Shown here one piece after another: positions 167-64,000 of a stretch of DNA of 64,000 nucleotides. The position numbers and the translations under genes were made by a program. The stretch covers positions 1 through 64,000 of the IMG/VR virus record IMGVR_UViG_3300026518_000008. One strand, written 5' to 3'. Source of the stretch: a virus. Below the pieces are notes generated by a model, which worked only from the letters and a program-made list of their open reading frames with translations, was not told the DNA's origin and ran no database searches. How positions within the stretch are numbered: position 1 is the stretch's first letter; the number at the start of each line of letters is the position of its first letter.

Positions 167-1309
167 TTATATTGTGTATTGTTTTTTTTCTGACAGTCTG
201 ATTCCTCTGTCATCTATTACAGATACGCTTACTGTTACCGTTCCTGTTCCATTGATTAGATCTATGTCGTTTTGTGATACATTTACTGTGAATGCTTTTG
301 TTTCATCTATCAGTACTCTATCATTGATATATACTGTATTCTCTGGACCATTTAGCTTTGTTACCACATATTTACTTACTACTCCATCACTTGTTCCGCT
401 TATTGTCATTCCGCCTGTTGATGGCCATGATGCAGGCCATGATGTTACTGTTAATGTTCCAGCTACAGCATTATGATTTGTGTTTAGGTAGTCTGCTGCT
501 GTTGACCATTTATTTATATATGGTAAATATGCTTCTGTTGTATCAAATGTTGAACTTCCTATCATTGTTCCTAGCATTGATGCAGATGAGTTTAGTATAT
601 GTTGTCTCATATTATCATCAAATGCTAGCTCTTGCCTTTTGGCAACAGCAGTCTGTGCACTTGCCATTCCATCTGAGTCGCTACTATATCCAGCTAGCAT
701 TCCATCTGATTTCTGAGTTACATCTACTAGTCCATTTGCTCGTACTGTTGATGACCACTTCTCATATATATCTGCTTGTGCTTTTTTTACAGCTTCTACT
801 TGTAGTCCATTACCTTTATCTACACTATTCCTATTCAGAACCAGGGTAGTAGTATTAATGTCAGAAACATCGTATCCATATGTTCTGTATAGATCTGCTT
901 GTAGTTTCCATCCTTCTATTGCACTTACAGCTGAATCAGCTTTCATTTTTTCTATAGATGATTGAGTTAGATCTTTCTCATATTCTACTTTTTTTCTTTG
1001 AGCATCTTCTAGCTCAGTGTCAACTCGTAATTTCGTTAGAGCGTACGGAGCGTCCCTGTTTTCTGTTTCTATTTTCATAGCCATATCCATTGCAGTCGTA
1101 GTTATTTGAGTTGTCATTCCTGATAGAGTTTGTGTGAGTATATCTGCTTTTTCTCTCTCGCTGAGAGATCCTGCATTTTCTACGAAATCTGTTATTGTTT
1201 CTTTGGTTCTTATGTATATACTATCTTCAGCAGTAGACGCTTTCATTAGTTCCATATATGTAGACACTATATTTAGCTTACCTATTTTCTCTTGTATTAC
1301 TGTTGCCAT
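167..1309 (-). CDS. virion structural protein (N4 gp54-like position)
   Basis: 380 aa ORF downstream of the capsid operon; helical N-terminus, Ig-like beta C-terminus; synteny inference. Confidence 0.55.
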   Translation of the reverse strand: MATVIQEKIGKLNIVSTYMELMKASTAEDSIYIRTKETITDFVENAGSLSEREKADILTQTLSGMTTQITTTAMDMAMKIETENRDAPYALTKLRVDTELEDAQRKKVEYEKDLTQSSIEKMKADSAVSAIEGWKLQADLYRTYGYDVSDINTTTLVLNRNSVDKGNGLQVEAVKKAQADIYEKWSSTVRANGLVDVTQKSDGMLAGYSSDSDGMASAQTAVAKRQELAFDDNMRQHILNSSASMLGTMIGSSTFDTTEAYLPYINKWSTAADYLNTNHNAVAGTLTVTSWPASWPSTGGMTISGTSDGVVSKYVVTKLNGPENTVYINDRVLIDETKAFTVNVSQNDIDLINGTGTVTVSVSVIDDRGIRLSEKKQYTI

Positions 1310-1333
1310 GTTATTTCCTTTTCATATTTGATA

Positions 1334-2383: not shown

Positions 2384-3840
2384 GGTATATATATCTCCCC
2401 GTTATCTAGATCTATATACATTCCGTTATTACTTGCTTTTATATATCCACCTTGTATATTAGGAGCGGCATTTGTCCCAGCAGCAGCACTATCTAGTATG
2501 AAAGAGTTAACGCTATCATCCATCTTTATTTGACCGGTTTCCATGTTGAAAAAATTAGCACCAGTTGGATCAGCTATCAGCCCAGTCTCTATTCTTCCTC
2601 CATCTATTACTGTTGTACCTGTTGGATTAGCTAGATCAGCAGACAGTGTCGCATTGTCATACTCAGTTCCTGATAGAGCACCAGACATACCATTAAATGT
2701 TACCTTACCTATGAAATTCACATTTCCATTCACATCTACTGAGAATGGTTTACCGTTGGCACCATCTCCATTTTGGATATAGAAATTATCTGCATATATT
2801 GCGAACACACTTCCTGTTGCTCCATATGAGCTTCCATCATAGAACCCCCATCCAGTTTTGTTTCCATTTGTATCATACAATATCTTGCTTGCTCCACCAG
2901 TCCAGTTTGATACACCAGTTGGAATTGATGGTATTTGATGCCATCCATCTGTTCCAAATGATCCGCCTATGTATTCCCAGTATACACCTGATGTATCTGG
3001 AGCTCCAGAACTTGTTGCTGATTGTTTATTGCTACCTATCTTTGGAACATATGTTATTCCATCATAGTTTCCAGTTCCATTGAACTCATCTAGAGTTACA
3101 ACATGCACAGCTCCACTTGACACACCTTCTTCTGATGCTATTCTTGTACTCAGCTTTCCAACTTTTGCTACATAGTCTCCATAAAATCCTGATGATGCAT
3201 TCATTGTTCCATCTGGATTTATTCCTACTGCTGTATACGCTGTAGATATATGTCCAGCATTCGATGCTACACCAGTAGTAGGGTCAGTTACTATAGATAG
3301 TAGCACAGTTGATGCATATGATGCAGCTATGGCATCTGTTGCTATTGTTTTTGATTGGTTTAGTATTGATGCATTATTTGCATTAAATTCTGAACTTTGA
3401 ATTACTGTATCTACTGTTACTGCTTCATTTTTTGTTACATATGAGTTTTTCACATCCACTATTGCAGCTGCGTTTCCATCCAACTCTGATTTTACAGTAT
3501 CTATTTTTATATTTTGTGAGACAACTTGATTTTCTATTGAGGATATGCTCTCATGCACTCCTTTTTCTATTCCTGCTATCAGTACAGATAGATCATGCAC
3601 TACTTGATTTTGATCAGCGTATCCATTGCTTAGAGCTATATCTATACTCTTTGTTAACCAGTCTGGCATTCCACCATTTGCGTATCCTGCTGCTGCACTA
3701 GTCGTTACTATATAGTCTTGTGATGATACTATTGCTGTTGCTTTGTCAGTTGTTTTTACTGTTGCTGGCACAGCTTCAGATTCTACTCTCACTGGTTCTG
3801 ATGTTACAGATACAGATTCATCTACTACTTTTACAGACAT
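2380..3840 (-). CDS. tail fibre / central spike protein with DUF1983-like segment
   Basis: coiled coil followed by SVFAIYADNFYI...KPFSVDVNGNVNF, typical of J-like tip proteins. Confidence 0.6.
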   Translation of the reverse strand: MSVKVVDESVSVTSEPVRVESEAVPATVKTTDKATAIVSSQDYIVTTSAAAGYANGGMPDWLTKSIDIALSNGYADQNQVVHDLSVLIAGIEKGVHESISSIENQVVSQNIKIDTVKSELDGNAAAIVDVKNSYVTKNEAVTVDTVIQSSEFNANNASILNQSKTIATDAIAASYASTVLLSIVTDPTTGVASNAGHISTAYTAVGINPDGTMNASSGFYGDYVAKVGKLSTRIASEEGVSSGAVHVVTLDEFNGTGNYDGITYVPKIGSNKQSATSSGAPDTSGVYWEYIGGSFGTDGWHQIPSIPTGVSNWTGGASKILYDTNGNKTGWGFYDGSSYGATGSVFAIYADNFYIQNGDGANGKPFSVDVNGNVNFIGKVTFNGMSGALSGTEYDNATLSADLANPTGTTVIDGGRIETGLIADPTGANFFNMETGQIKMDDSVNSFILDSAAAGTNAAPNIQGGYIKASNNGMYIDLDNGEIYIP

Positions 3841-3842: not shown

Positions 3843-4838
3843 CTATGCACCTGCATATGATACATATATATCTGCTATTCTTGCTACTCTATTGAGTGGA
3901 TTTGGATTTCCATTTACATTAGAGAACTTTATATTTATTATTCCCATGTATTCTGATTTGAGATAGTAGTTATCTACTCCATCTCCTTCTAATACATTGA
4001 GTTTCGCTGTCTCACTTGCATACATTGATACGACTAGATACCCATTTTGATCATACCAGTCTGCAGTTATTTCTGGAGACCCTATAGTATATGCAGTTTG
4101 GACTATGTTTGTAGATTTATCTACTTTTGCCTGACCACCTGCATTTTCAATTATTGTGATTACATCAGAACCAGATGGATGCGTCTTACCTACATATTCA
4201 GGTAATACAGTCATTGCAGTATTCAGTGAATCCATTATCTTACCAGCACTTGTCAGAGTATCATTTGTGTTGCTTAATCCACCAGATATTGTCAGAGTTC
4301 TAGTACCTACAGTCACATCATAGTCAGTTAGTGAAGTACCAGCAGTTATTGCGTCTGCTCCAGATTGCGTCAGCACTATATAGTTTCCATTTGTTGTATA
4401 GTATCCATCTTGATTTGATACTGTTGCTGCTGTAATTGATGAGCTATGTATTACTACCGTTGCTACAGTATCTCCAGCATTTACTGCACCAGATTGAGTA
4501 TTTACTGAGAATATATCTGTCTCATTATCTACTTCATACACCTCACCTTTTACAGTTATTGAGTATTTCTCGTATCCAACTCTTGATATTTGCAGAGTCG
4601 TGTCTTCTGGTACGGCAGCAGTATTACCTACTATTACAGCTTTTCTTTCTACTAGCATTTGAGCTAGTTCTATTCCATTTACATCTACAGCTGGTGTCCC
4701 ATCTGCTTTGTTTCGTATCTTGAATTCGCTTAGTAGATTATCTAGTTCAGATACATTTTGCGGCAGGAAACTATCTTCTTCCATTATTTGTACTGTGAAT
4801 GTATAGTCAGTGCCTTGTGGTATTATGAATCTGCTCAT
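3843..4838 (-). CDS. virion structural protein
   Basis: 331 aa T/S/G-rich beta protein in the tail operon. Confidence 0.5.
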   Translation of the reverse strand: MSRFIIPQGTDYTFTVQIMEEDSFLPQNVSELDNLLSEFKIRNKADGTPAVDVNGIELAQMLVERKAVIVGNTAAVPEDTTLQISRVGYEKYSITVKGEVYEVDNETDIFSVNTQSGAVNAGDTVATVVIHSSSITAATVSNQDGYYTTNGNYIVLTQSGADAITAGTSLTDYDVTVGTRTLTISGGLSNTNDTLTSAGKIMDSLNTAMTVLPEYVGKTHPSGSDVITIIENAGGQAKVDKSTNIVQTAYTIGSPEITADWYDQNGYLVVSMYASETAKLNVLEGDGVDNYYLKSEYMGIINIKFSNVNGNPNPLNRVARIADIYVSYAGA

Positions 4839-4944
4839 GCATTTCTCCAGTATTGTATTTTGTTGTTGAGGGATTACTATTTACCCTCGTATATATTCAC
4901 ATCAGAACCAGGGGAGTTAGTCCTAGTTCCAATCTAACTACATA

Positions 4945-6918: not shown

Positions 6919-8184
6919 TCATAGACTCGCCTCGAGATTTTTATACCATTCGTTGAATGATTCATCATCATCATCGAGATAGTCAACTACAGTTTTATTC
7001 CCTGCAGATTTACTAGGTATTGCAGCATTTTTACGCCCATTGGCATCTGCTTCTACCTGTTTCTGCTTTTCTTGTTGTGCTTTCACTTCGGCTATTCTAA
7101 CAGCATTTGCTTCAGCTTGTCTTTTAGCTTCTGCGTTTGCACCATCTAGTCTTGCCTGTTCAGTAGCATCGTTTTGAACTTTAGCTATATTTTGGTTTTG
7201 AATTGTATGAGCTCGTCTCTGTGCAGCTTGTGCATAGTATTCGATATCAGACAGCCTATTACCATCGTACAGCTTTAGTTTTGTTGCTTCTGCACTCAGC
7301 ACATCGAAATCTCCAGACTTCACATCTATGTGTAGCTTTTTGATTAGTGATGGGTTATCTAGGAATGCATCTCGTGATGATTGATCCCATCTGTTACTCA
7401 GCACGTCTTGTGTTATTGCGTATTCAGGATCCCTTCCTATTTCATTTACTATGTCATTGATTTCGAGTTCCACTTCAGATTGTCCATACTGTTGTGGCTG
7501 ATACACCTGATCTTCACTATCAACATCCAGCTCCATAGGATCTATGTTTACTTTTTGCATGAGCTTGTTGATAGCTCCTTTGTCACCCTTCATTACATCT
7601 ATCATTAACTCAATATCAGAATGTGATATTTTATTATCTTCTAGTGCACTTATCGTGGTTCTCCATGGCTTGATCTCTTGCATCTTTTGAGTATAATTCA
7701 TTGACTGACCAAATACTTGTCCGAATCGTTCTTTTATCTCCGCTTCAGTAAATTCGAATTCTTGTCCATTTGCATTATACTTATATGTTTGTGGCTTCGT
7801 GTCCTCTGGTTCTGATTTGTCTACATCGTTAGCTTCTGTCTTATCTGCATCAGCTTCAGCAGGATCTGTTCCATTGTCTTCGTTACCATCAGTATTGGAG
7901 TCTGTAGTCGATTGTTCCAATTCTTTTGAATGCTCATCATCTGCAACATCATTATCTTGCGATTTGTCACTATTTACATCGTCTTCTGCCGGTTCAGAAC
8001 CAGTGATATTTGTAGTTTCATTTTCATCAGAGTTTGCATCATTTTGGTCTCCGATTATATCATCTCCTATATCTCCTTGTTCTTGTTCAGCTCGAGCAGA
8101 AGCTAGTGCTTCTTCGAACTGTTCATCTGACATATCATAAAGGGCTTCTTCTTCATCAGTAAGTGGGTTTACGCTATCATACAT
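6919..8184 (-). CDS. capsid scaffolding protein (N4 gp57-like)
   Basis: 421 aa, very acidic N-terminus, YKYNANGQEFEF...MNYTQKMQ; between portal and capsid. Confidence 0.75.
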   Translation of the reverse strand: MYDSVNPLTDEEEALYDMSDEQFEEALASARAEQEQGDIGDDIIGDQNDANSDENETTNITGSEPAEDDVNSDKSQDNDVADDEHSKELEQSTTDSNTDGNEDNGTDPAEADADKTEANDVDKSEPEDTKPQTYKYNANGQEFEFTEAEIKERFGQVFGQSMNYTQKMQEIKPWRTTISALEDNKISHSDIELMIDVMKGDKGAINKLMQKVNIDPMELDVDSEDQVYQPQQYGQSEVELEINDIVNEIGRDPEYAITQDVLSNRWDQSSRDAFLDNPSLIKKLHIDVKSGDFDVLSAEATKLKLYDGNRLSDIEYYAQAAQRRAHTIQNQNIAKVQNDATEQARLDGANAEAKRQAEANAVRIAEVKAQQEKQKQVEADANGRKNAAIPSKSAGNKTVVDYLDDDDESFNEWYKNLEASL

Positions 8185-8887: not shown

Positions 8888-9172
8888 TTATCTCCAGTGT
8901 GTTGGTATTGGTTTTTGATTTGTTTGCTCGTGATATTGTTGTGCCACTCCAGAACCAGAGGAGAGTATATTTGCTAGACCAGATTCAGCCATATCTGCTC
9001 TATGTTTTTCAGCATCTAGTTCTGGTATAAGCTTGTCATACGCTTGTTTTGCTCCAGCTATCATTCCTAGTTTAGCTATCTTCTTGTTTTCATTTTCTTT
9101 AACTATTGCATCGTATTCTGCAGCTTTTTTGTCTCTAGCTTCTTCTGCTAATTTATTAGCTATGATTCCCAT
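8888..9172 (-). CDS. hypothetical protein
   Basis: 94 aa ORF with AAGGAG RBS. Confidence 0.6.
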   Translation of the reverse strand: MGIIANKLAEEARDKKAAEYDAIVKENENKKIAKLGMIAGAKQAYDKLIPELDAEKHRADMAESGLANILSSGSGVAQQYHEQTNQKPIPTHWR

Positions 9173-11270: not shown

Positions 11271-11375
11271 TATTTTTATTTATAGATTGTGCGTGGATAC
11301 TATTTACTCTGTATATTGGACTACTTCAGAACCAGAGTATATAGTATGTCTAATGTAATACTCTGTATACTGCTC

Positions 11376-12412: not shown

Positions 12413-12658
12413 TTATTTAGAATCACTACATCTTGTCATCTCTACTTTATGTTTTTTTAGACATATTATGACTTGACCTAGTTGTTCATCTAGTGTTCCA
12501 TGTAATTTTCCACATATTATTTTATCATACTTACATGGAACTGGAACCATTGTTTCTACAGTTTTTACTACAGGCTCACATATCTCTGGTTCTGGAGTAG
12601 TGCTATTACATCCACTATAGAGTATCAAGATCGAAACCGCTAGTAGCATTTTCAACAT
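12413..12658 (-). CDS. o-spanin (Rz1-like lipoprotein)
   Basis: lipobox ILYSG-C, Pro/Cys-rich, overlaps i-spanin end. Confidence 0.75.
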   Translation of the reverse strand: MLKMLLAVSILILYSGCNSTTPEPEICEPVVKTVETMVPVPCKYDKIICGKLHGTLDEQLGQVIICLKKHKVEMTRCSDSK

Positions 12659-13052
12659 CTATATATCCTTTACATTTTTCTATATTTATATCATTATCTT
12701 TTGTTTCATGTTTTACATTTTTTAAAGTATCATACCATTTTTTATATTTATCTCCATCTGGTTTTGATTTCCATATTTTTACTTCTTTCTCCTTCAGAAC
12801 CAGGGAGGCTGCTTGTTTTTCCATCATTATATTTTGTCTATCTATTGCATTAGTTAGAGTTGATTTATCATTTCTCAGAGATCCAATAGAGATGTCTTTC
12901 TCAGATATTTTTTTAGCTAGTTTACCTATAGTATCATCTCTATATTCTATGTCTTCATGCAGTCCACTTATTTTTATTTGGTACCAAATAGCAAGAGCTA
13001 CCATACCAATGCCTAACCCAGCACTTATATATTTCCATATACCGCCAAACAT
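12615..13052 (-). CDS. i-spanin (Rz-like)
   Basis: N-terminal TM then coiled coil, C-terminal Cys; implies a diderm host. Confidence 0.75.
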   Translation of the reverse strand: MFGGIWKYISAGLGIGMVALAIWYQIKISGLHEDIEYRDDTIGKLAKKISEKDISIGSLRNDKSTLTNAIDRQNIMMEKQAASLVLKEKEVKIWKSKPDGDKYKKWYDTLKNVKHETKDNDINIEKCKGYIDVENATSGFDLDTL

Positions 13053-36158: not shown

Positions 36159-36210
36159 AGAACCAGAGATAGATTGGACTATTTCCAGTCTTTTCTCTCT
36201 GGTTCTTTTG
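36159..36210 (+). terminator. long hairpin (terminator-like) before RNAP
   Basis: AGAACCAGAGA...TCTCTGGTTCT plus inner AGATTGGA/TCCAGTCT, short T tail. Confidence 0.55.
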
Positions 36211-43809: not shown

Positions 43810-43894
43810 ACTAGATGATTAGAAATACTATATGTATTTTATATGCATATAATAACGACAATGAACAATGGTTATATTGAAAAGGAGATACAAA

Positions 43895-47875: not shown

Positions 47876-48304
47876 ATGAGAGTTATTATTAACAACGAAC
47901 ATTCAGATAGCGAGATACTACCACCAGAACTGGAGAGTATCATAGGATTTCAATTCGGTGAGGAAGTAAATATCCCAGTTGCTACATATAACGCTATTTT
48001 CAATCTTACATTTACGAATTCAGCTGGAATGCAACAGAACAGATTTAAAATCATAGTTATATCTATGGATGAATCACCAGAGGAAGTTGAGCAGAAGGCA
48101 GAGATAGATGCTGTAACTGCAGCTCAAGAGGAAGAGTTTGAACAGATTGTATTAACTCTTGACAAATATGAGGCACTTCTATCAGGAGTTGCTACAGCTC
48201 ATGCAAAACATGGTATCAGTACAGATTCTGCACCAAATTCTGCTATTGCATTATTTCTTCATCTAAATTCACCAGAGTTTACTACCTCAGAACCAGAGGA
48301 ATAG
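47876..48304 (+). CDS. hypothetical protein
   Basis: AAGGA RBS before MRVIIN. Confidence 0.6.
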   Translation: MRVIINNEHSDSEILPPELESIIGFQFGEEVNIPVATYNAIFNLTFTNSAGMQQNRFKIIVISMDESPEEVEQKAEIDAVTAAQEEEFEQIVLTLDKYEALLSGVATAHAKHGISTDSAPNSAIALFLHLNSPEFTTSEPEE

Positions 48305-48526: not shown

Positions 48527-48795
48527 CACACTCCTGGTTCTGATGGGTTGCAGTAGAAGGCTGTAATTAAATAGCGTCGCCGACTTAATCGGCGGAGCAC
48601 CTTGCCCACACTATGTGAGAGATGAGTTATAAGACAGGAATAAAACCGCCTGCAGCTATAAGGTTCTTAGAAGTTAGCTTATTAAAGTGTAACCGGTCCA
48701 CTTGTCTCTCATCGCCTGATTCATTTTGCAAAACGCATCACAGTCCCGTCCTATATGGACTCACATTATATACATACATCTTGAAAGGATATAAT

Positions 48796-49407: not shown

Positions 49408-50472
49408 ATGTATTTAGTAAAATACTTTAAAGATGAGATAAGACGCAGATATTTTGTTGATAGTAATAACAATTATGCTGCAAATATGATAGTTGATGAG
49501 AGATGTATAGTTTCTACATTATATAGTAGAGATATGGTTCAAAGAGATCACTATGTTATATCAGAATGGTTTTCTAATAAATATGGAATTAGACAACTTC
49601 CATTCAAATTTATGCTTCAGACATTGAATATCAGTGATAAAAAACTAAAATCCCTGGTTCTTGCAGTGAAACGAAAAAGACTAGAATTTGTTTTTGCAGG
49701 ATTTGGAGGAACTGGTATGAATACTGCATATTGGTTACAGAAAATTCTTGACCATACAGGAGATGTATACTTATTTAATAGCGTACATGTTTACGATGAT
49801 GACGAGATTGAATTTTCAAATCTTTTTAGATTTCCACAGGATTTATCGTCATGTACAGAGAACAAGAAAGCATTTATGTATACTAATAAAAACTCACTTG
49901 GTAGAAAGTATTATAAAGTAGCAGATACAATTAAATTTGTAAATCCATCTATTGAATATAGATTTGCTAATGTAGAATTATTTGAACACACAGACTATAC
50001 ACATAGACTTTCGTTTGCAGACGATACTATTGTGTATGGAGCACCAGATCTTGCTACTCGAAAAGATGTTTCTCTTACTAATTGTAGATTCATAGCAGCT
50101 ACTCATGGGGGAAATTCTTGCTCTATGACAGTACAGCCAGACATTGATGAGAACTTACAGACAGAGGGATATGGTGTAATACACTTGAACACATTTTTCT
50201 GGAATCAACTCGCTATGGCTATTGGACTTTTAGAGTTCCTTGCGGAGGACGATATTCAACAGATAGAGACTACTGATATTAATTCAGATGGGACTCCTGT
50301 AATGAACCTTGATGGTACTACTTCTACAATACTTGCAGATGTGTCTAAATGGGATCAGGAAGGGCAAATATTTAAGTTCAGCTTTGAGGATTTTGTTGAC
50401 TCTGGTTCATTTGGTAAAGCTTCCAGAATTCTTGATTTTAATATTACTAAAGACAATGGAGGACGAGTATGA
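49408..50472 (+). CDS. ThiF/E1-like adenylyltransferase
   Basis: AGFGGTG, YDDDEIEFSNLFR, IVYGAPDLATR. Confidence 0.8.
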   Translation: MYLVKYFKDEIRRRYFVDSNNNYAANMIVDERCIVSTLYSRDMVQRDHYVISEWFSNKYGIRQLPFKFMLQTLNISDKKLKSLVLAVKRKRLEFVFAGFGGTGMNTAYWLQKILDHTGDVYLFNSVHVYDDDEIEFSNLFRFPQDLSSCTENKKAFMYTNKNSLGRKYYKVADTIKFVNPSIEYRFANVELFEHTDYTHRLSFADDTIVYGAPDLATRKDVSLTNCRFIAATHGGNSCSMTVQPDIDENLQTEGYGVIHLNTFFWNQLAMAIGLLEFLAEDDIQQIETTDINSDGTPVMNLDGTTSTILADVSKWDQEGQIFKFSFEDFVDSGSFGKASRILDFNITKDNGGRV

Positions 50473-51629: not shown

Positions 51630-52913
51630 ATGGCTTATCATATAAATACATCTAGACACAACGCTACTCCAACTCAGAAGAATGCATCAGTTTGCTCTGT
51701 ACCAAAGTATGACTTTGTAGGAAAAATTCACACCACATCTACTGGTGATCTTTTTGGAGTGCTTTTACTACAGCAGGAAACTCTTGACGAGATATTCGAG
51801 CAGAGCGGACCACTTGCTGTATCGAATGAATTTCAGTTCCACTATACATCATTAGTTGGGAAACTTCAGAACCAGGGGCAGGAGCTCTATATTAGTATTC
51901 CACTTGTATGTTACAACTACAAACAGACGGTATCTGGAGCTCACATTGGATTCAACCTTGAGGACACTGAGACTATGTCAGATGATACTCTTGAGATCGC
52001 ACAGATGAAGGCTGCAGAATTTCTTAGTACAGATACTCGTACTCAGATAGAGTCTATCTTTGGAGAACTTGATTGGCATGTTGCTACACTACAGACTATG
52101 CACAGACATCCAGGAGGTTCATCTCAGGGATTCTCAAGTACAGATCTTATGACAGATCCAGACAGAGCTGGAATTGTATTTCCACTTAATGAGTCTATTG
52201 AGAAATCTATCAGTTTTTCATCTATTATGTATGTGCAGAATGGATCGTGTAGACTTGCTCATACTGAGGTTCGTACTGCACTTGGTTCAGCTTCAGAGAA
52301 GAGTGGAATACTATACAGCAATGGTAGATCTATTACTATTGTTGCTGGATATGATTCTACGCCTACAGAGCTTGATACTATGTTTGGCATACCTGGATAC
52401 ACATCTACAGATACTGTATATTTTGATGACATGCCTACCACTACAGATATACCTCAGCAACTTACATCTATAATGAGAGAGTCCTCTTTTAGGCCAGAGA
52501 TATTTATTGATGAAAATCATTTATCCACTGAGACTACTTACTATGGGAAGCAGAGAAAACCTTTGATTAAACAATCAGAATTTACAAAATCCACAGATAG
52601 CTTTCAAAATACTAACCAGCTGAGCTTATTTAGTAGAGGACTTGAAGATGACATCGTATTTGATCAAGATGAATTATATGAAGATTATATAGATCCATTA
52701 GATCAGGATTCATCTGGAATGTATACACAAAATCCATTTGAGCTTGATCATATGGACAGAGAGATACTTACAGATGCACTTAGAGATGAACTTGCAGATA
52801 TTACATATTGCGGAACCAAGAGTCATGTTTTCACAGAACGAGAGATTGCTCTCAAGCCTGAACATGAGATCTGGAGATTATCCAGAACTCACAAATTACT
52901 AAAACCACTATAG
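51630..52913 (+). CDS. JAB/MPN+ metallopeptidase
   Basis: NEFQ...QTVSGA...MHRHPGGSSQGFSSTD (E...HxH-x8-SxxD). Confidence 0.8.
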   Translation: MAYHINTSRHNATPTQKNASVCSVPKYDFVGKIHTTSTGDLFGVLLLQQETLDEIFEQSGPLAVSNEFQFHYTSLVGKLQNQGQELYISIPLVCYNYKQTVSGAHIGFNLEDTETMSDDTLEIAQMKAAEFLSTDTRTQIESIFGELDWHVATLQTMHRHPGGSSQGFSSTDLMTDPDRAGIVFPLNESIEKSISFSSIMYVQNGSCRLAHTEVRTALGSASEKSGILYSNGRSITIVAGYDSTPTELDTMFGIPGYTSTDTVYFDDMPTTTDIPQQLTSIMRESSFRPEIFIDENHLSTETTYYGKQRKPLIKQSEFTKSTDSFQNTNQLSLFSRGLEDDIVFDQDELYEDYIDPLDQDSSGMYTQNPFELDHMDREILTDALRDELADITYCGTKSHVFTEREIALKPEHEIWRLSRTHKLLKPL

Positions 52914-52923: not shown

Positions 52924-53814
52924 ATGGCTACAACATTTCAAACATTGTATGGTTCAGATGATTTGTTTTTTACACCAGAACACCAATTTGGTATACGACG
53001 TTCAGAATTAGCTGATGCAACATCTAATTCTGATACAACTACAGAAAATACATCTATTCCTGACCCAATTGATACTAACCAATCAGAACCAGGTGAGATG
53101 ATTCCGTATGACACTTCACGAGATATTACATCATTGATTACAGAATTTCATGATCATCATGACAGGCTAGAAGGTGATGCATATGTATTTGATGCAGAGA
53201 TGCTATCAAATACTAGACTCCAGAATTTCCTTATGACTATTGATCATAGGGCTAGACCAGAACAGAGAAAGATTACTATGCCAGATATGAGCAGAATTAT
53301 TGAGCATGGGCTATCTATGATTGTAGATGGATATGATCAACTTGAGTATAGAGACTGTTCTAAAGTATTTCATTTTAATAACGGAGATGTACTGCTCAGA
53401 GTATCTGGATTCATCAATAGAGCTACTGAAACTATTGAAATTATTCGTTATACGAAGAAATTCAAAGTAGACCGCATGATTGATGATGTCCAGGCAAGAC
53501 GAGTATTTGATTATTCGTTATATGCATCAGCATTTCTACTAGCATCAAGATATCCAGCTATTGGAACTATGATTAAAACAATTCATGAGCATTTTGGTGA
53601 ATTTCATATCACTGAGCATTTCCCGTATATATCCAGCAATAATACTATTGAGTCAATACTTGAGGCATATATATCTGATATCAATTCTGGAGAATTGCCA
53701 CCAGAGTGCGAGGACAAATGGACCACTCGGGCTGGAGTTAATTCTCGTTGTGAGAAATATTGTTCAGTTAAAGATATTTGTCCATTTTACACTCCTACTC
53801 ACGCTGGTTCTTAG
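52924..53814 (+). CDS. Cas4/PD-(D/E)XK-like protein with C-terminal Cys cluster, catalytic motif degenerate
   Basis: LPPEC...RCEKYCSVKDICPF. Confidence 0.5.
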   Translation: MATTFQTLYGSDDLFFTPEHQFGIRRSELADATSNSDTTTENTSIPDPIDTNQSEPGEMIPYDTSRDITSLITEFHDHHDRLEGDAYVFDAEMLSNTRLQNFLMTIDHRARPEQRKITMPDMSRIIEHGLSMIVDGYDQLEYRDCSKVFHFNNGDVLLRVSGFINRATETIEIIRYTKKFKVDRMIDDVQARRVFDYSLYASAFLLASRYPAIGTMIKTIHEHFGEFHITEHFPYISSNNTIESILEAYISDINSGELPPECEDKWTTRAGVNSRCEKYCSVKDICPFYTPTHAGS

Positions 53815-53820: not shown

Positions 53821-54256
53821 CAGCTGGGTGTCGTTTCAGTCGACTTCTTAAGTAGAAAGTGTTCTCCCCAGCACATGTATTAATTCATTTGCGAGATAAT
53901 ATTCGTATCCTGCTTAGTGTGCGTGGTAGATACACAGAGCATTTTTCCATTTGGCAACTATTTACCATTTGGAAGAACACTACAGAACCAGAGTGATGAT
54001 CATCCCACAGAGAACTCATAGGAGTTTTGTTTGGGTCGATTCATATCAGTCCCTCTAACCTTAGACAGGAAGAGAAAAGAATATGCGTGTTTAGTATCAG
54101 AATTTATGCGTTAAGAAAACTGAGATGTTAATTTGTGATATTGAGTTGTAACTGCAAAACAAAAATATTAATTGGGAATATTTATATTACTAGAACGAGT
54201 CAGTGTGGCATTGCGTCTACACATACAATTCTAGTCTCCAGAAAGATGCCCAGCTG
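53821..54256 (+). ncRNA. candidate large structured ncRNA (~435 nt)
   Basis: ends pair (CAGCTGGGTGTC-G-TTTC / GAAAGATGCCCAGCTG); several internal stems; no ORF. Confidence 0.6.
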
Positions 54257-55111: not shown

Positions 55112-56404
55112 ATGAGACAAGATATAGAGGAACGCATTAATGCTACTAAAGTTCCATACAAAATATATGCAGAGTTTGTCGAAGACAAAGCTGCAGAACA
55201 ATTTGCAAATTGCCTAGAGCAGGAGTCTGTAGTGCAAGGAGCTCTCATGCCAGACACACATGCCGGTTACGTTGCACCTATCGGTTCTGTACTAGCTACA
55301 AATGGTACTATTTTCCCATCTTTCGTTGGATACGACATCGGATGCGGCATGAGCTCTATCCGTACTAATATCCAATACAAATCAGTCTCAACAGAACAAC
55401 TAGAGGCTATTAAAAATCAGATTCTTAGAGATATTCCTATTGGTTTTGAGAGACATTCTAAACCTAAGACACATATCGTAGAAAGATTTCCTATGACACC
55501 TTTTGCAAAGGACGTGTTACGCACCACTGGTTCTTATCAGTTAGGCACACTTGGCGGAGGGAATCATTTCCTTGAAATAGGATATGACAATGACGAATAT
55601 TTAAATATAGTTGTTCACTCAGGTTCGCGTGGTGTTGGACATAAAATTGCCACTAAATATATGAAAGAGGCTGCAATTCAATCAGTAGACGAATCTAGAT
55701 ATAGAAAAGAATTTGATGAGAAAAATAAAGCTTGGCTAAATAAAATTTTAAACAGCAAATCATCTCCAGCTAATGACAAATTACAGGATAGATACGACAA
55801 AGCTAAAACTGAATTTACTTATCGTCGCACCAGAGCTAGAGTATCGAATATTGAGGATGCGTATCCATTAGATAACACATCAGAACCAGGGATGGGATAC
55901 ATGCAGGATATGAACATGGCATTGGAATTTGCTTTAGAGAATAGAGAGCTAATGATAGGTAGATCAGTAGCTGCTATTGCTAAAGTTCTTGGCCAGGATA
56001 TTTCTACTTCTCGCTTTATCAATCGAAATCATAACCATGCAGAACTAGTAGATGGTAGATGGATACATCGCAAGGGAGCCACTCAGGCTGCAGATGGTAT
56101 GATTGGAGTTATACCAGGAAACATGGTAGATGGCTCGTTCATAGTTAGATGTAGAGGTAGCTCAGATTCTATGAATTCATCATCTCATGGAGCAGGTAGA
56201 GTTTTATCTAGACGAAAAGCCAAGGATACTCTTGACCTAGAGGAGTTTATTTCTAGCACAGCTCACCTAATAGCGAACCATTCTGATTCAAACCTAGACG
56301 AATCTCCACTTGCATACAAAAATATTTTTGATGTAATGGAACAGCAGTCAGACTTGGTTAAGACACTAGACAGAATTGTACCAATTATAAACATTAAAGG
56401 GTGA
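55112..56404 (+). CDS. rtcB: RtcB RNA 3'-phosphate/5'-OH ligase
   Basis: MPDTHAG, VGYDIGCGM, LGTLGGGNHFLE, HSGSRG, HNH, HRKGAT, HGAGR, DESPLAYK. Confidence 0.96.
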   Translation: MRQDIEERINATKVPYKIYAEFVEDKAAEQFANCLEQESVVQGALMPDTHAGYVAPIGSVLATNGTIFPSFVGYDIGCGMSSIRTNIQYKSVSTEQLEAIKNQILRDIPIGFERHSKPKTHIVERFPMTPFAKDVLRTTGSYQLGTLGGGNHFLEIGYDNDEYLNIVVHSGSRGVGHKIATKYMKEAAIQSVDESRYRKEFDEKNKAWLNKILNSKSSPANDKLQDRYDKAKTEFTYRRTRARVSNIEDAYPLDNTSEPGMGYMQDMNMALEFALENRELMIGRSVAAIAKVLGQDISTSRFINRNHNHAELVDGRWIHRKGATQAADGMIGVIPGNMVDGSFIVRCRGSSDSMNSSSHGAGRVLSRRKAKDTLDLEEFISSTAHLIANHSDSNLDESPLAYKNIFDVMEQQSDLVKTLDRIVPIINIKG

Positions 56405-59097: not shown

Positions 59098-59453
59098 TTA
59101 TATACAGACACATTCGTAGAAAGAGTTGTGATTTTTTCGACACAAAAGAGTATACGATTGCAGCAGAACTTAGAGACGGAGCATACTATATCGGCATTGC
59201 TACATGTTCACCACGAGATACATATTGCAAAAAAACTGGACGAGAGATTGCTAGATCTAGACTTAAGTCATCAGAGCAGAAGATCACACTTGATGACCTC
59301 AAATTGGAGGTAGATATTTCAGAGTGCAATATATTTACACATGAGTATACCAGCAATTTCATTGGATCACTATCTATAGAGGATTTCTCTATACACCATG
59401 TCTTATCACTTGCTCATGATACATTTATTGATAACAACAGTAGTGTATTATGA
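59094..59453 (+). CDS. hypothetical phage protein
   Basis: GIATCSPRDTYCKKTGREIARSR. Confidence 0.65.
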   Translation: MIIYRHIRRKSCDFFDTKEYTIAAELRDGAYYIGIATCSPRDTYCKKTGREIARSRLKSSEQKITLDDLKLEVDISECNIFTHEYTSNFIGSLSIEDFSIHHVLSLAHDTFIDNNSSVL

Positions 59454-60346
59454 AAAAACCTATAAACAATTATGAGACAGGAGATGGTATCATTCCAGAT
59501 GGAATGATAAAACTAAGTCCTTCAAGATTTGAGAGATTCTTCTCGAAACCACATGAGTGGTTCAGAGAATTGATCATGCAGGAGGGTGGGTTCGATGGTA
59601 ATTCTGGGTCCAACATTGGGAATATTATCCATGCTACTGCAGAGGCAGAGGCTACAGGTCAGACACTTACTGATGACGAGATTCAGGAGTTCATAGACAG
59701 CTTGCCAGAGTTAGTTGACGAGAAACATCCATGGATGAATCTTGAGCATCATGTCATTAGAGCAGCTTATCCAGACATGCAGGAGCTTATTCGCGAGTTT
59801 GTAAGAGAGAATCTACCTACATCTACAGAGGGATATATCTGGAGACAGATTACTCCACGAATTGTAGTTGCTGGTTCTTACGATGCATACAGAGTGAATC
59901 CTATGACAGGAAATTATATTGTGACCGACTACAAGACTACTGGAGAGAAATTACCTCCGAAGTCAATGAGTTACTCTCACAAATTGCAGCTTTATATGTA
60001 TGCTTGGATGCTTCGCAAACAGGGCATTATGGTAGACGCTATCGAAATAGTATATATTACTAGATTCCATTCAGGGGCACCAGCTAAAATTTCAGAGAAG
60101 ACAGGGAAACTTGGAAAGCCTGGAAGAGATTATCCAGCTACGCTTACACCGATTATGTACGAATTTACAGACAGAGATATGACTTTTATATCTGACTTGA
60201 TAAAACTTGGAGCTGAGTCACTTGAGTATTTCATTGATCATCCAGAGGCAGCATACATTATTTTTCGAGACTACCGTCTCAAAGGAACAGACTTCTCCAG
60301 ATACTTGACAGATATAGTGGACGGCGGAGTTTACGACGATTTTTAG
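59450..60346 (+). CDS. PD-(D/E)XK exonuclease
   Basis: LSPS, GNIIH, E, GSYDA, VTDYKT, QLYMY. Confidence 0.85.
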   Translation: MKKPINNYETGDGIIPDGMIKLSPSRFERFFSKPHEWFRELIMQEGGFDGNSGSNIGNIIHATAEAEATGQTLTDDEIQEFIDSLPELVDEKHPWMNLEHHVIRAAYPDMQELIREFVRENLPTSTEGYIWRQITPRIVVAGSYDAYRVNPMTGNYIVTDYKTTGEKLPPKSMSYSHKLQLYMYAWMLRKQGIMVDAIEIVYITRFHSGAPAKISEKTGKLGKPGRDYPATLTPIMYEFTDRDMTFISDLIKLGAESLEYFIDHPEAAYIIFRDYRLKGTDFSRYLTDIVDGGVYDDF

Positions 60347-60356: not shown

Positions 60357-61091
60357 ATGTCAGACACATCAGATATATATAAGAGTAGCTTTGAAGGACT
60401 ATTTCATTTACCACAGGCACCAAATGAAAAGATTCTTCTAGCTTCTGAACTAGGATCAGAGCTTCTTGTCTCATATTTACGCAGAACCAGCGGAGGGGAA
60501 TATTTACAACATTTCTCAGACATGTTTACACAAGTTTTGAGAAATGCTACTGGATATAATTGCTCATGGTTTTCAACTAAGCTAGAGAATGGTTGGGATA
60601 TTCAGTCAGAGATCAGTTACCTAAATCACGATGAAAAAGTTGCATGCCTTTCAATTGTACTATCCACGAATCGTATACTTGAGCTTCAGAAGGCAGATAC
60701 ATCTCATCCCCTGGTTCTGGAGTTATCAGTAATGAGATACATAGCTGACAAATATAAGACTACAAATTCATCAGTGTACAAATTCATCATCATAGCTTTT
60801 GATAGACTATATACTGATTACAAATCTATGCCTACTCAGGCTATCACATATATAGAGCCAGAGTTACTTAGTATTGCAGAGACAGAGAATAGACTCATTG
60901 AGTATACTGACCAACTTCAACACTACATTGATACATGCACACTTCCACCTCGTTGCACAGATATCAAATGGCATAGACGTCGAGGGAAATCCATCAATAT
61001 GACTTGTCAGAGATGTCCAGTCAGGAATTCATGTCCGCATACGAATTCATTTACACACACCAATGCTACATTGGATAATATTATTTTTTAG
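60357..61091 (+). CDS. Cas4/PD-(D/E)XK-like protein with C-terminal Cys cluster, catalytic motif degenerate
   Basis: LPPRC...TCQRCPVRNSCPH. Confidence 0.5.
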   Translation: MSDTSDIYKSSFEGLFHLPQAPNEKILLASELGSELLVSYLRRTSGGEYLQHFSDMFTQVLRNATGYNCSWFSTKLENGWDIQSEISYLNHDEKVACLSIVLSTNRILELQKADTSHPLVLELSVMRYIADKYKTTNSSVYKFIIIAFDRLYTDYKSMPTQAITYIEPELLSIAETENRLIEYTDQLQHYIDTCTLPPRCTDIKWHRRRGKSINMTCQRCPVRNSCPHTNSFTHTNATLDNIIF

Positions 61092-61102: not shown

Positions 61103-61510
61103 ATGGACCAATTACCAGAACATGTACTAAAGAACAAAGAGAGACAGAAATTTGACTCAGTAAAACACAAGATTCGCATTATGCAGGCTTTCGTTGATGG
61201 CAGGCATATTATTTGCAAATCTAGAGAGACTCTTGAGTCATCTCCAGACAGAACACCATCATGGAATTGGGAGACGCATTCATATATGATTGCACACGAC
61301 AACTACTCTCCGAGAGGCACTATTTACCCTACCGATTATGATACTCCAGAACCAGTGGTGATGGATCTTGACCAGAGATATGAGCTTCCAGATGAGTTAC
61401 CTGTTGTTTCTTCATCTAAGACATTGGATGAGAGATTTGCAGAGATTGATAGAGAGTACAATTCTAGACAGATTGGATTCTGGTCTACAGTTAGATCATT
61501 TTTTTCATAG
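61103..61510 (+). CDS. hypothetical phage protein
   Basis: IRIMQAFVDGRHI...PSWNWE..Y. Confidence 0.65.
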   Translation: MDQLPEHVLKNKERQKFDSVKHKIRIMQAFVDGRHIICKSRETLESSPDRTPSWNWETHSYMIAHDNYSPRGTIYPTDYDTPEPVVMDLDQRYELPDELPVVSSSKTLDERFAEIDREYNSRQIGFWSTVRSFFS

Positions 61511-61519
61511 GAGACTCAT

Positions 61520-64000
61520 ATGAGCACTTTTACTTTACGTCCTCACCAGCAACATGCTGTAGATGAAACAATTGCAGAACTTGCATTTGGATCATCTGAG
61601 GTAGTTATTGATGCACCGACATCTTTTGGGAAAGAGCAACCATATACAGAGCCTGTTCTTACTCCAGATGGATTTATCCCGATGGGTCAGCTTTCAGTTG
61701 GCAGCAGGGTTATTGGTTCAGATGGGCAGCCAATCCTTATCACTCATATACATGAGCAGGGATGGAAAGATGTGTACGAGATATCATTTCGAGACGGTAG
61801 CTCAGTACGTTGTGGACTTGATCATTTATGGAGAATATCTAAATATGAGAAGAGACAGCAGGATGGCATTTCAGAGTCATATTTGAAGTATGACACGAAA
61901 TCTATTTCAGAATTGTTGAATTATTCAGAGAATTCCCAGCGTAGATTTTTTGTAGATTTACCTTCTCCTGTTCTCACTGGGCACAGTGATTTACCTATTG
62001 ACCCATATGCACTTGGATTATTGCTTGGAGATGGATCTTTTACATGTAGCACTATTGGTTTCTCAAATAGAGATGAGCATATCATAGATGCACTTTTTGA
62101 TGCTATTCCTTCCAGAGACAAACTTGGATATATAGGTTTTAGAGACGATGGATCTAAGGTTGATATGAATATTATCAGCAGAACATCTGGAAAGACCAGG
62201 AGCGATACTTCACTTATTCTTGAGTCACTAGAATTGCTTGGAAAGAAGTCTACAGAGAAATTTATTCCAAATCAGTATATGACCTCTTCATATATAGATC
62301 GTATGAAATTACTACAGGGTCTTATTGATACAGATGGCCACTGGCAGACAGGCACTCTGAATGAATATTCATCTTCGTCTAGAGAGCTTGCATATGGAGT
62401 AGTTGATCTAGCTAGAAGTCTTGGCATATATGTTACTATATCAGACAGAATCCCGGTCTTTAAAGATACGAATGGACAGAAAAAGAATGGTTCTAGAAAT
62501 TATAGAGTATTTTTAAATTTTGCTCGAACCAAGAAATCTATTATATCTATTAGATCGTTAGGATACAGAGAGAATAGTAGATGTATTACAGTGGATAGCA
62601 CAGATCACCTATATATCACTAAAGATTTCACACTTACCCACAACTCGTCAGTAATTGCTGGACTTTGTCGAGATATGGATGCAGAGGATATAGTTATCCT
62701 TGTCAATATTACAGAGCTTATAGATCAGATAGCTGAGCACTTAGATTATTTAGGACTGAGTTATTCTATCTTGAAGGCTGGACGAGAGTCAGAGTTTGTA
62801 CACGGATCACGTATACATATTGCTATGTCTCAAACATTGTTTTCACGCATTGACAAGATTGACTTATCTTGTGATGTCATCATACAGGATGAGGTTCACA
62901 AGGAGTTTTCTACGAATCGCACGCAGACTATTCTTGACAAATTACAGCCTGATTCTCGTATTGGATTATCAGCTACACCATACGATGCCAAGAATTTCAA
63001 ACTTGGAGATTCTACTATTATACAGACATTATCTGTTCAACAGTTGCAGGATGATGGATATTTAACACCAGTAAGATATTTTATTCCTAAATGGTCAGAG
63101 CAGGTTGATTATTCGTCAGTTAAATCCACAGGAGCAGACTATACTATATCAAAACTAGATGAGAAAATTGCTACTCATCAGCATATAGAGCAGTCATTAC
63201 GTTCTATGAACTTACTCGATGCAAAATCGAAGAAAACTATTGTCTTCTGTTCATCTATAGAACAGTGTGAGTTAGTTACAGCAGCCATGAGAGCAGATGG
63301 ATATGCAGTTGAGCAGGTTCACTCTAAACAGAGCAAACAGGACAATGAGAATATCATTTCAGCTTTCAGAGATTGCACATTATATACACCTGGAGTTAAG
63401 GCCAGACAAAATGATGCAGAGCGAACACTATTTGAACAGGATAACATTCACTCTGGTTCTGAGGTGTCAGCACTAGTATCAGTGTCAAAACTTTCTACAG
63501 GTTTCGATGTCAAGGATATTCAGCTTGGAGTATTGATGAGACCTACTAAGGTATTATCTCTATTTATCCAGCAGGTAGGTAGGCTAATTCGTACAGCACC
63601 AGGAAAAAAATATGCAGAATTATTAGATCTTGCTCAATGTACATCCAGATTTGGATTTCACACGACACAGTTTACTCCGCTGGAGCATTCTGGAAACATA
63701 GATCTTGATAGAACACGCAAATTATTATCTGACTCAGAGATGGAACTCAAACATCTTGCTCAGACTCTACCAGATGATGGAGATGAGTTACAGGAATTTG
63801 ATTTTGAGAAATACGCACTCAGTATTCAGAAACTAGCTGCCAAAGAGAAATTGCTTCTTGAGAAAAAGAACGATATAACTACTTGGACTATGAAAGAGTT
63901 AGCCTCAACTTATGACTACACTGATAATATACAAACAGTAATTGCTATTGGTGCAGAGATTTATACACGCAAGTTTGGATCTCCTATATCTAAGAAGGGA
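61520..64000 (+). CDS. SF2 DExH helicase with intein (3' end beyond the window)
   Basis: manual translation LRPHQ, APTSFGK|S, IIQDEVH, GLSATP, STGFDV, QQVGRLIR. Confidence 0.9.
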   Translation, partial: MSTFTLRPHQQHAVDETIAELAFGSSEVVIDAPTSFGKEQPYTEPVLTPDGFIPMGQLSVGSRVIGSDGQPILITHIHEQGWKDVYEISFRDGSSVRCGLDHLWRISKYEKRQQDGISESYLKYDTKSISELLNYSENSQRRFFVDLPSPVLTGHSDLPIDPYALGLLLGDGSFTCSTIGFSNRDEHIIDALFDAIPSRDKLGYIGFRDDGSKVDMNIISRTSGKTRSDTSLILESLELLGKKSTEKFIPNQYMTSSYIDRMKLLQGLIDTDGHWQTGTLNEYSSSSRELAYGVVDLARSLGIYVTISDRIPVFKDTNGQKKNGSRNYRVFLNFARTKKSIISIRSLGYRENSRCITVDSTDHLYITKDFTLTHNSSVIAGLCRDMDAEDIVILVNITELIDQIAEHLDYLGLSYSILKAGRESEFVHGSRIHIAMSQTLFSRIDKIDLSCDVIIQDEVHKEFSTNRTQTILDKLQPDSRIGLSATPYDAKNFKLGDSTIIQTLSVQQLQDDGYLTPVRYFIPKWSEQVDYSSVKSTGADYTISKLDEKIATHQHIEQSLRSMNLLDAKSKKTIVFCSSIEQCELVTAAMRADGYAVEQVHSKQSKQDNENIISAFRDCTLYTPGVKARQNDAERTLFEQDNIHSGSEVSALVSVSKLSTGFDVKDIQLGVLMRPTKVLSLFIQQVGRLIRTAPGKKYAELLDLAQCTSRFGFHTTQFTPLEHSGNIDLDRTRKLLSDSEMELKHLAQTLPDDGDELQEFDFEKYALSIQKLAAKEKLLLEKKNDITTWTMKELASTYDYTDNIQTVIAIGAEIYTRKFGSPISKKG
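61634..62644 (+). mobile_element. intein (337 aa) with LAGLIDADG endonuclease, class 3 signature
   Basis: inserted in Walker A GK|S; starts EQP; DHLW, RCITV, THN|S; LGLLLGDG and LQGLIDTDG. Confidence 0.9.

Follow-up and report, generated by a model that had tools for sequence, protein, structure and literature searches.

We report the analysis of a short, exactly repeated DNA word in the genome of a phage sampled at hydrothermal vents. The stretch considered here, which we refer to as the window, comprises 64,000 nucleotides (positions 1 to 64,000 of IMG/VR virus record IMGVR_UViG_3300026518_000008) and is the first 64 kb of a single-contig genome of 93,163 bp. The phage is labelled G000 throughout, and the word in question is the octamer AGAACCAG, which reads CTGGTTCT on the complementary strand. 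The phage contigs come from the hydrothermal-vent metagenomes of two studies, of which one may include the source sample. The two ends of the G000 contig (positions 1-110 of the window and 93050-93163 of the genome) overlap by about 100 bp with a few mismatches and a single gene spans the junction as an open frame, so that the assembly is circularly closed and very likely complete; the IMG/VR entry lists it as linear and the CheckV completeness estimate is 85%.

Judged from its gene content, G000 is an N4-like podophage. Structural genes (portal, terminase and tail) are accompanied by genes for RIIA, RtcB, a UvrD-type helicase and ribonucleotide reductase, by the recombination and nuclease genes for a PD-(D/E)XK nuclease, a Sak4-like annealase and RusA, by an HNH nuclease gene and by those for an N4 gp43-like primase and a split virion RNA polymerase (vRNAP). 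The closest named relatives are the Alteromonas phages vB_AmaP_AD45-P1 to P4 (AD45), of around 100 kb, whose portal protein is 58% identical to that of G000.

Within the window there are 52 exact copies of the word (31 on the plus strand and 21 on the minus strand; Table 1), where dinucleotide shuffles of the same sequence yield 1.71 +/- 1.37 copies and at most 6. Across the whole genome the count rises to 76 (45 plus, 31 minus), the array reaching position 93,052, against a third-order Markov expectation of 5.8 (z ~29). The word is the commonest octamer of G000 and the runners-up are octamers that overlap it. A first-pass annotation, made from the letters of the window, had described such an over-represented motif, which is borne out here, and all 36 of the positions it named are genuine copies (36/36).

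The enrichment is a property of the DNA. Shuffling of synonymous codons, which keeps the proteins and the codon usage of each gene, gives 9.3 +/- 2.4 copies in coding sequence and shuffling of codon order gives 4.8 +/- 2.1, as compared to the 66 observed. Relative to the genes, 30 copies lie in the sense and 35 in the antisense direction, 11 are intergenic and all six frames are used, just as the earlier description had it: both strands, within and between genes, in differing frames. Two frames dominate, in which sense copies are mostly translated as x-Ser-Glu-Pro-x and antisense copies as x-Gly-Ser-x, and the G000 proteome shows a 2.6-4-fold enrichment of the tripeptides SEP, PGS and QNQ; it follows that the DNA word has shaped the protein sequences of this phage and is placed where the proteins tolerate it. 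The codon nulls agree with the flanks, the orientation and the conservation in a sister phage described below, and the proposal that AGAACCAG is a selected DNA-level signal, and neither an amino-acid nor a codon effect, is fully supported.

The conserved site extends well beyond the octamer. Information is found from -7 to +10, reading Y Y A C n T C AGAACCAG r G R with a run of bases rich in purines and poor in C behind it, which makes an asymmetric site of some 18 bp (YYAC..M AGAACCAG nGR); the extension given in the first-pass annotation, (C)AGAACCAG(RG), has the correct bases but is too short. Among the intergenic copies, Y occupies position -6 in 100%, A position -5 in 91%, C position -4 in 91% and G position +9 in 91%, and since this conservation is kept in every frame class and is sharpest between genes, the flanks are part of the DNA signal. 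Purines make up 76, 93 and 86% of the bases at +8, +9 and +10, and C 8, 1 and 1%, in G000 and in the sister contig G002 alike. The base directly 5' of CTGG is least frequently G (6 of the 76 copies). None of the one-mismatch variants of the core is enriched within the flank context in G000, and the core is thus strict at eight positions of eight. A hairpin or cruciform was considered and rejected, as the complementarity of the upstream and downstream flanks is that expected of independent columns, with no covariation of a stem.

Such an anatomy recalls a promoter, and the sites might be read as minimal promoters for a single-subunit (T7-like) RNA polymerase of the phage, with short RNAs from both strands serving as replication primers or antisense regulators. 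Some 15 conserved bases that precede a purine-rich start, often GGGAGA or AGGAGA, do resemble a T7 promoter, and N4-like phages have two polymerases of this kind (PMC4496689). The absence of a bias in gene orientation (30 sense, 35 antisense) nevertheless speaks against promoters, as does the comparison with those of related phages: that of N4 RNA polymerase II is a minimal AT-rich element from -7 to +2, unlike the GC-containing core of G000, and those of the N4 and LUZ7 vRNAPs, like the LUZ7 middle promoters, are hairpins, whereas the G000 sites have no hairpin covariation. A GC-rich CCAG just upstream of the putative start would, in addition, melt poorly. We regard this as the least probable of the explanations weighed here.

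A sister phage is represented in another metagenome (IMG/VR sample 3300003177) by two contigs, L001 (7.6 kb) and G002 (24 kb), which are 72-80% identical to G000 in nucleotide sequence and hold 8 and 25 copies of AGAACCAG, respectively. Where the two phages can be aligned, over 17 kb, full conservation is found for 14.1% of arbitrary 8-mers; 8 of 11 G000 sites are conserved in the sister (P=2e-5), and 8 of 14 sister sites in G000 (P=2e-4). The claim of selection thus survives comparison with a related phage as it survives the codon-preserving null. Those copies that are not shared arose by point mutation, including mutations that change amino acids (TEVE to QEPE, GY to GS).

The layout of the copies along the genome adds a structural result. 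The strand labels of successive copies form 55 runs, against 37.7 +/- 4.2 expected (P<5e-5), an excess of alternation, and each strand taken by itself carries a regular array: the 45 plus-strand copies have a mean gap of 2.1 kb with a coefficient of variation (CV) of 0.56, and the 31 minus-strand copies a mean gap of 2.9 kb with a CV of 0.53 (P<2e-4 for each). At short range, copies avoid their own strand, 20 of the 23 gaps under 450 bp being those of opposite-strand pairs. Five other G000 words that are about as frequent, taken as controls, neither alternate between the strands nor are significantly regular in their spacing. The density of the word is uniform, at 0.74-0.91 per kb across the structural, early/middle, replication and vRNAP modules, is uniform along genes too and does not depend on the direction of transcription. 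Opposite-strand copies within 300-450 bp of each other (for example 36159/36199, 24780/24869 and 30065/30164) are somewhat in excess, 19 being found where a rotation null gives 12.7 +/- 2.4 (P=0.009), with convergent as well as divergent pairs among them. The simplest reading of this layout is that the signal is read one strand at a time and is needed on each strand every few kilobases, such that a second copy nearby on the same strand adds nothing. In the literature that we searched, no N4-like phage is described as carrying, strand by strand, a regular array of one exact word of at least 8 nucleotides (nt).

Table 1. Copies of the word in the window, and genes of the adjoining replication module
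Feature	Position	Strand	Remarks
full array within window	837..63460	both	52 copies; continues to 93,052 in genome, 76 in total
AGAACCAG copy	837..844	+	exact match
AGAACCAG copy	3792..3799	-	exact match
AGAACCAG copy	4167..4174	+	exact match
AGAACCAG copy	4904..4911	+	intergenic; conserved in L001
AGAACCAG copy	7806..7813	-	conserved in L001
AGAACCAG copy	7996..8003	+	L001 has its own copy 33 columns off (turnover)
AGAACCAG copy	8951..8958	+	conserved in L001
AGAACCAG copy	11328..11335	+	intergenic; conserved in L001
AGAACCAG copy	12586..12593	-	exact match
AGAACCAG copy	12796..12803	+	exact match
AGAACCAG copy	14399..14406	+	exact match
AGAACCAG copy	16724..16731	-	exact match
AGAACCAG copy	19368..19375	+	exact match
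AGAACCAG copy	21212..21219	+	exact match
AGAACCAG copy	24780..24787	+	opposite-strand pair with 24869
AGAACCAG copy	24869..24876	-	pair with 24780
AGAACCAG copy	25890..25897	+	exact match
AGAACCAG copy	26747..26754	-	intergenic
AGAACCAG copy	28333..28340	+	exact match
AGAACCAG copy	29458..29465	-	exact match
AGAACCAG copy	30065..30072	-	opposite-strand pair with 30164
AGAACCAG copy	30164..30171	+	pair with 30065
AGAACCAG copy	31430..31437	+	exact match
AGAACCAG copy	31869..31876	-	intergenic
AGAACCAG copy	34547..34554	+	exact match
AGAACCAG copy	34957..34964	+	intergenic
AGAACCAG copy	35949..35956	+	exact match
AGAACCAG copy	36159..36166	+	intergenic; pair with 36199, 40 bp apart
AGAACCAG copy	36199..36206	-	intergenic; pair with 36159
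AGAACCAG copy	38756..38763	+	exact match
AGAACCAG copy	39841..39848	+	exact match
AGAACCAG copy	40425..40432	-	exact match
AGAACCAG copy	41315..41322	+	exact match
AGAACCAG copy	42186..42193	-	exact match
AGAACCAG copy	44094..44101	-	exact match
AGAACCAG copy	46071..46078	+	exact match
AGAACCAG copy	46208..46215	-	exact match
AGAACCAG copy	46485..46492	+	exact match
AGAACCAG copy	48289..48296	+	exact match
AGAACCAG copy	48534..48541	-	intergenic
AGAACCAG copy	49654..49661	-	exact match
AGAACCAG copy	51868..51875	+	exact match
AGAACCAG copy	53085..53092	+	exact match
AGAACCAG copy	53804..53811	-	exact match
AGAACCAG copy	53984..53991	+	exact match
AGAACCAG copy	55527..55534	-	exact match
AGAACCAG copy	55882..55889	+	exact match
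AGAACCAG copy	59871..59878	-	exact match
AGAACCAG copy	60483..60490	+	exact match
AGAACCAG copy	60711..60718	-	exact match
AGAACCAG copy	61348..61355	+	exact match
AGAACCAG copy	63453..63460	-	exact match
PD-(D/E)XK nuclease gene	59450..60346	+	starts the replication/recombination module; genomic context, partnership unproven
Lineage-specific SF2 helicase (ResIII + Helicase_C) with LAGLIDADG intein	61520..64000, on to 64300	+	extends beyond window
AEP/PriCT gp43-like primase	64372-66510 of genome (L011:372-2510), beyond window		follows helicase; candidate reader of the word

Uniform coverage of this kind could also be produced by an array of duplex-DNA binding sites for a sequence-specific phage protein, one that organises or coats the genome, blocks translocating nucleases or motors of the host, or marks the DNA as self. 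The asymmetric 18-bp footprint, whose contacts (YAC at -6 to -4, the core, and G at +9) are spaced by about one turn of the helix, would suit such a protein, and many lineage-specific open reading frames (ORFs) of no assigned function adjoin the replication genes. Repulsion between copies on the same strand without repulsion between strands, and hence the per-strand arrays, would however be left unexplained, the strictness of the core without enriched one-mismatch variants would be unusual in an array of this sort, and the analysis turned up no candidate DNA-binding domain. A ParB-like domain is likewise absent (PF02195 gives no match in six frames of the complete genome), and a partition site of the parS type, or the segregation-protein site listed in the first-pass annotation, is accordingly unsupported. 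A duplex binder seems to us improbable, though less so than the promoters considered above.

The strand-specific, asymmetric word in a regular array on each strand could also mark the place at which a phage enzyme nicks one strand or modifies a base, as in the localized single-strand interruptions of T5-type genomes or in sequence-specific hypermodification, and HNH and PD-(D/E)XK nucleases are indeed encoded. Nevertheless, there is no methyltransferase of the three main Pfam families (PF01555, PF02384 and PF00145 give no match in the same six-frame search), which also tells against the modifying protein proposed earlier, and no ligase homolog was found in G000 with the AD45 ligase as the query. 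Nicks at opposite-strand sites only 40-100 bp apart would risk double-strand breaks, and in the known nicked phage genomes the nicks fall on one strand only; G000 differs from these T5-like and phiKMV-like genomes in bearing its word on both. We consider a nick or modification site very unlikely, scarcely more probable than a promoter.

In its abundance and placement the array also resembles the uptake signal sequences (USS) of the Pasteurellaceae and the DNA uptake sequences (DUS) of the Neisseriaceae, which have a core of 9-12 nt with weaker flanks and occur about once per 1.2 kb in both orientations; the fairly even spacing and the preference for frames in which proteins tolerate the word are common to both. 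Those words, however, belong to the chromosomes of competent bacteria, where they are kept by uptake bias, and strand-wise regular arrays are not their hallmark. Uptake bias is not known to act on a lytic phage, in which the uptake-like signal suggested at first would make little sense.

Among related phages the word has a narrow distribution. On the sequences compared, only G000 and its sister securely carry a DNA-level word, and words that may be similar occur in three further, small samples: L087 (5 kb, primase 70% identical) has four copies of GAACCAG, each followed by RG; L025/L042 carry CAGTGGTTCyT in about 12 dispersed copies on both strands, where the expectation for the 8-mer core is 0.8; and L004/L005 have 23 copies of TGAACCA versus 2 expected. 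All of these words have TGGTT(C) in common on the complementary strand. No such DNA-level word occurs in G007, G009 or AD45, which are relatives with complete genomes, and GAACCA is only 2-fold in excess in G003/G004, whose primase is 26% identical. Across 2.9 million viral contigs, a 16-nt extended pattern of the word found dense copies in the sister contig and in no unrelated phage, a scan sensitive only to long contigs that share the flanks.

A GAAC-core motif of the whole family was entertained and rejected by frame analysis, the words of most relatives lying in one frame and orientation or on one strand. This holds for CTAGTTC in AD45-P1 (43/66 in one frame), CTTTAGCA in G009 (35/44), GGGTCA in G003/G004 (42/54) and a 15-mer in PT11-V19 (16/16 on one strand), and such placement means that the enriched words of these phages are coding or regulatory effects and not the phenomenon seen in G000. 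The 15-mer just mentioned, CAACAGGATCAACAG, occurs in some 16 single-strand copies, 7 of them intergenic, in Alteromonas phage vB_AmeP_PT11-V19 (L009+L010), and probably serves this N4-like phage as a promoter or regulatory repeat. In G009 (L060-L064) the 9-mers CCATCTCCA and CCACTTCCA, with 13-16 copies nearly all on one strand and clustered (CV ~2.5), look like a repeat within one gene and not a dispersed signal. Escherichia coli K-12 has 79 copies of CAGAACCAG against 10 of a reversed control; this is plausibly an effect of codons (CTG-GTT-CTG), and is uninformative.

The replication module of the word-bearing lineage differs from that of its relatives in its superfamily 2 (SF2) helicase, its divergent primase and a number of small ORFs without homologs in AD45, G007 or G009. 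The primase gene follows the helicase (Table 1). Its product is 83% identical to that of G002, which has the same word, 70% to that of L087, which has GAACCAG-RG, and about 22% to that of AD45, which has none; on these few independent lineages, the word may track that of the primase. A clean correlation between the word and the presence or absence of the primase was considered and then downgraded: the lack of a match in G007, G009 and G019 probably reflects the sensitivity of the search, as the AD45 primase is itself a homolog of only 22% identity. The helicase intein is not the only one in this genome, a second of the LAGLIDADG type being found in the UvrD-type helicase (69604-72153 of the genome; L011:5604-8153). 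The NrdA match in the sister contig G002 is split by ~0.9 kb, probably by another intein, and the single-sequence fold of a lineage-specific protein of 244 amino acids was unusable (predicted local distance difference test, pLDDT, 39).

The G000 primase matches the PHROG DNA primase profile (E=1.6e-66) and, over residues 657-711, Pfam PriCT_1 (E=7.7e-6). It has a P-loop N-terminal part and, towards the C-terminus, an archaeo-eukaryotic primase (AEP) domain with the PriCT_1 helical domain, and six homologs share its conserved DxD and SHQ motifs. A model of the C-terminal half (pLDDT 60) has as its best match the primase RepB' (3H20; probability 0.92, E=2e-3), followed by the AEP domain of the S-2L PrimPol. 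On profile and model taken together, the enzyme is predicted, with weak to moderate confidence, to be an AEP-type primase with a helix bundle. No DNA polymerase was recognised beside it: six-frame Pfam searches of the complete G000 genome for polymerases of family A, family B and Prim-Pol gave no match, and the Pol I of AD45 as a tblastn query gave none either, where the relatives AD45-P1, G007 and G009 all encode a Pol I. A complete N4-like genome of 93 kb with no recognised DNA polymerase has to be explained under either of the two readings to which we now turn.

Taken together, the strand-wise arrays, the helix-bundle AEP primase and the precedent of phage NrS-1 point to an option that the first-pass annotation did not list, namely that the word is a strand-specific signal for the initiation of DNA synthesis, read by the phage's own primase. 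Of the explanations we have considered this is the one that we favour, and we put it forward tentatively. The N4 gp43-like primase would read the single-stranded template as 5'-Y C n [CTGGTTCT] G A n G T R R-3' and would begin its primer with the bases immediately 5' of the word, so that the primer would read 5'-R-G-R-n-R, which is the conserved purine flank. As the enzyme would read one strand only, each strand would need its own sites at the distances of Okazaki fragments, and selection would write a separate regular array into each by point mutation, placing the word between genes or where the proteins tolerate it, mostly as Ser-Glu-Pro or x-Gly-Ser. Priming would in this way account for the strand specificity, the per-strand regularity on an Okazaki scale, the independence of transcription and the asymmetry of the flanks, as well as for the word's association with the replication module, and the purine-rich, C-poor flank of both G000 and G002 is compatible with initiation beside the word.

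Three known systems bear comparison with this proposal. The AEP primase-polymerase of NrS-1, a vent phage, recognises an 8-nt template word, 5'-TTTGGTTA-3', besides GTG(A/G) (PMC8718748, citing Zhu et al. 2017); that paper attributes recognition-site binding to the helix-bundle domain and places the start of synthesis at the first base 5' of the word (PMC8718748). Both phages are from the deep-sea vent environment and encode an AEP primase with a helix-bundle domain, both words are of 8 nt and have TGGTT in common (TTTGGTTA and CTGGTTCT), and the G000 flank is purine-rich just where NrS-1 begins synthesis. NrS-1 is, however, an unrelated siphovirus for whose 8-mer no genome-wide regular array is reported, its authors suggesting a mark of a specific start site, whereas G000 has 76 copies in per-strand arrays and a primase of different domain order, with the P-loop part N-terminal.

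The T7 primase recognises the core 5'-(G/T)2GTC-3', with a 10-nt 3' flank that contributes to site choice and ~26 active sites defined (PMC12839067). As in G000, a core is extended by the 3' flank of the template and a limited number of sites, kilobases apart, is distributed over the genome. The T7 gp4 protein is of the DnaG/TOPRIM type, has a zinc-binding domain and uses a core of 3-5 nt, and its sites partly cluster and are not, unlike those of G000, exact copies of a strongly over-represented word. RepB' of plasmid RSF1010 (PDB 3H20), the best structural match of the G000 model, combines the AEP fold with a helix bundle and primes only at the specific sequences ssiA and ssiB. The ssi sites, however, are hairpin-containing origins of about 40 nt that occur once per strand, while the 76 sites of G000 are dispersed and free of hairpins. 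G000 has, then, the genomic and structural features of a primase-site system, of which priming at the word would be the biochemical one, and we do not assign it to any of these known systems or to the Chi arrays discussed below.

Several considerations weigh against priming. The link between word and primase lineage is a correlation and not proof, since it amounts essentially to one evolutionary event together with a 5-kb fragment, and the entire replication module, SF2 helicase and small ORFs included, co-varies with the word. The structural match of the primase model is weak (E=2e-3, pLDDT 60). Characterised primases mostly require 3-5 nt, and a requirement for 8-18 nt would be unusual in the routine priming of a lagging strand. 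The mild pairing of opposite-strand copies within 450 bp is predicted neither by priming nor by any of the rival explanations considered. The NrS-1 enzyme itself primes at GTG as well as at its longer word (PMC8718748).

The second-ranked explanation, which we think unlikely and yet take more seriously than the duplex binder, is a Chi-like signal, an option that the first-pass annotation had raised. Here CTGGTTCT and its 3' flank would be read on the unwound strand by a helicase-nuclease, either RecBCD or AddAB of the host or possibly an enzyme of the phage, and would switch it from degradation to recombination; whichever way the enzyme came from a break or end, the word would protect the phage DNA, and it could also initiate recombination-dependent replication, the phage having no detectable polymerase of its own. 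Phages that depend on RecBCD accumulate Chi until it is the top octamer (PMC12315714), examples being LLS (23 sites, 1 per 1.86 kb, orientations 20:3), P1 (50 sites, 1 per 1.9 kb) and Pseudomonas phage MD8 (32 sites, 32:0) (PMC12315714), and Chi-rich phages carry frequent near-Chi octamers, from which the authors suggest that sites are gained and lost through mutation (PMC12315714). The word of G000 is Chi-like in being a top octamer beyond the effects of codon usage, apparently read on one strand, often within genes, present once per 2.1-2.9 kb of each strand and turned over by point mutation. It has CTGGT in common with E. coli Chi, GCTGGTGG, which is enhanced by purines at nucleotides 4-7 of the 3' flank (PMC5041463), a preference that the G-T-R-R flank of G000, nearly devoid of C, matches in part. 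As the complete genome has no detectable DNA polymerase, a dependence on host repair or replication is moreover plausible.

It is the layout that most clearly separates G000 from Chi. We used P1 as a positive control for a genuine phage Chi array: its sites occur in both orientations (31:19, comparable to 45:31 in G000), yet they are clustered (CV 1.24-1.45, with gaps of up to 29 kb) and show no alternation (24 runs against 24.5 expected), and the arrays of LLS and MD8 are polar and terminally clustered, so that the arrangement in G000 is unlike that of every documented Chi array. The earlier suggestion of a Chi-like signal therefore keeps a place among the candidates without the layout that it would lead one to expect. 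Chi-rich lambdoid phages, furthermore, have no recombination modules, whereas G000 has Sak4, RusA and the PD-(D/E)XK nuclease; neither a polar or clustered arrangement nor the absence of such a module is found in this genome. G is the rarest base 5' of CTGG (6/76), where both known proteobacterial Chi sequences have GCTGG. Finally, Chi is set by the enzyme of the host and is common to unrelated phages of that host, but the word of G000 follows the lineage of the phage replication module and was dense in no unrelated phage in the viral-contig scan.

Returning to priming, a stronger form of the proposal would have DNA synthesis, on the lagging strand or altogether, hard-wired into the sequence of G000: an AEP primase that needs an exact word of at least 8 nt would have co-evolved with per-strand arrays that overwrite proteins, in a genome with no recognisable polymerase, where either the primase would be the replicase, as in NrS-1, or the sites would recruit the replisome of the host. 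We regard this stronger form as doubtful, and as less probable than priming as such.

Some further observations concern the phage and its genome more generally. A scan of genome contigs by NrdA alignment matched Patescibacteria and other metagenome-assembled genomes (MAGs) and named no host for G000. One of these contigs (L068; JAEHGX010000003.1, 100,442 bp), from a 'Candidatus Falkowbacteria' MAG, encodes an NrdA 46% identical to that of G000 and is of phage-genome size; it is probably a related phage mis-binned into a Patescibacteria MAG. Among the early/middle genes of the window lies one for a collagen-like (Gly-X-Y) protein (42970-43809), weakly similar to collagen-like adhesins, followed by an ORFan of 462 amino acids (43868-45256) for which Pfam, PHROGs, NCBIfam, the PDB sequences and the ESM Atlas gave no match and the relatives examined no homolog.

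Should the word prove to be Chi-like, it would reveal the recognition sequence of the break-repair enzyme of a vent bacterium, together with a new, regular and bidirectional layout of such an array. Should it be a priming signal, as we tentatively favour, the start points of DNA synthesis would be readable straight from the sequence of the phage, and the sequence preference of a replication enzyme would have reshaped the codon context at some 65 places in proteins unrelated to one another, which would be a clear example of protein evolution constrained by a signal in the DNA. It would also provide a simple, testable system of one enzyme, one 8-mer and predicted primer 5' ends, and a way to recognise the replication strategy of uncultured phages.

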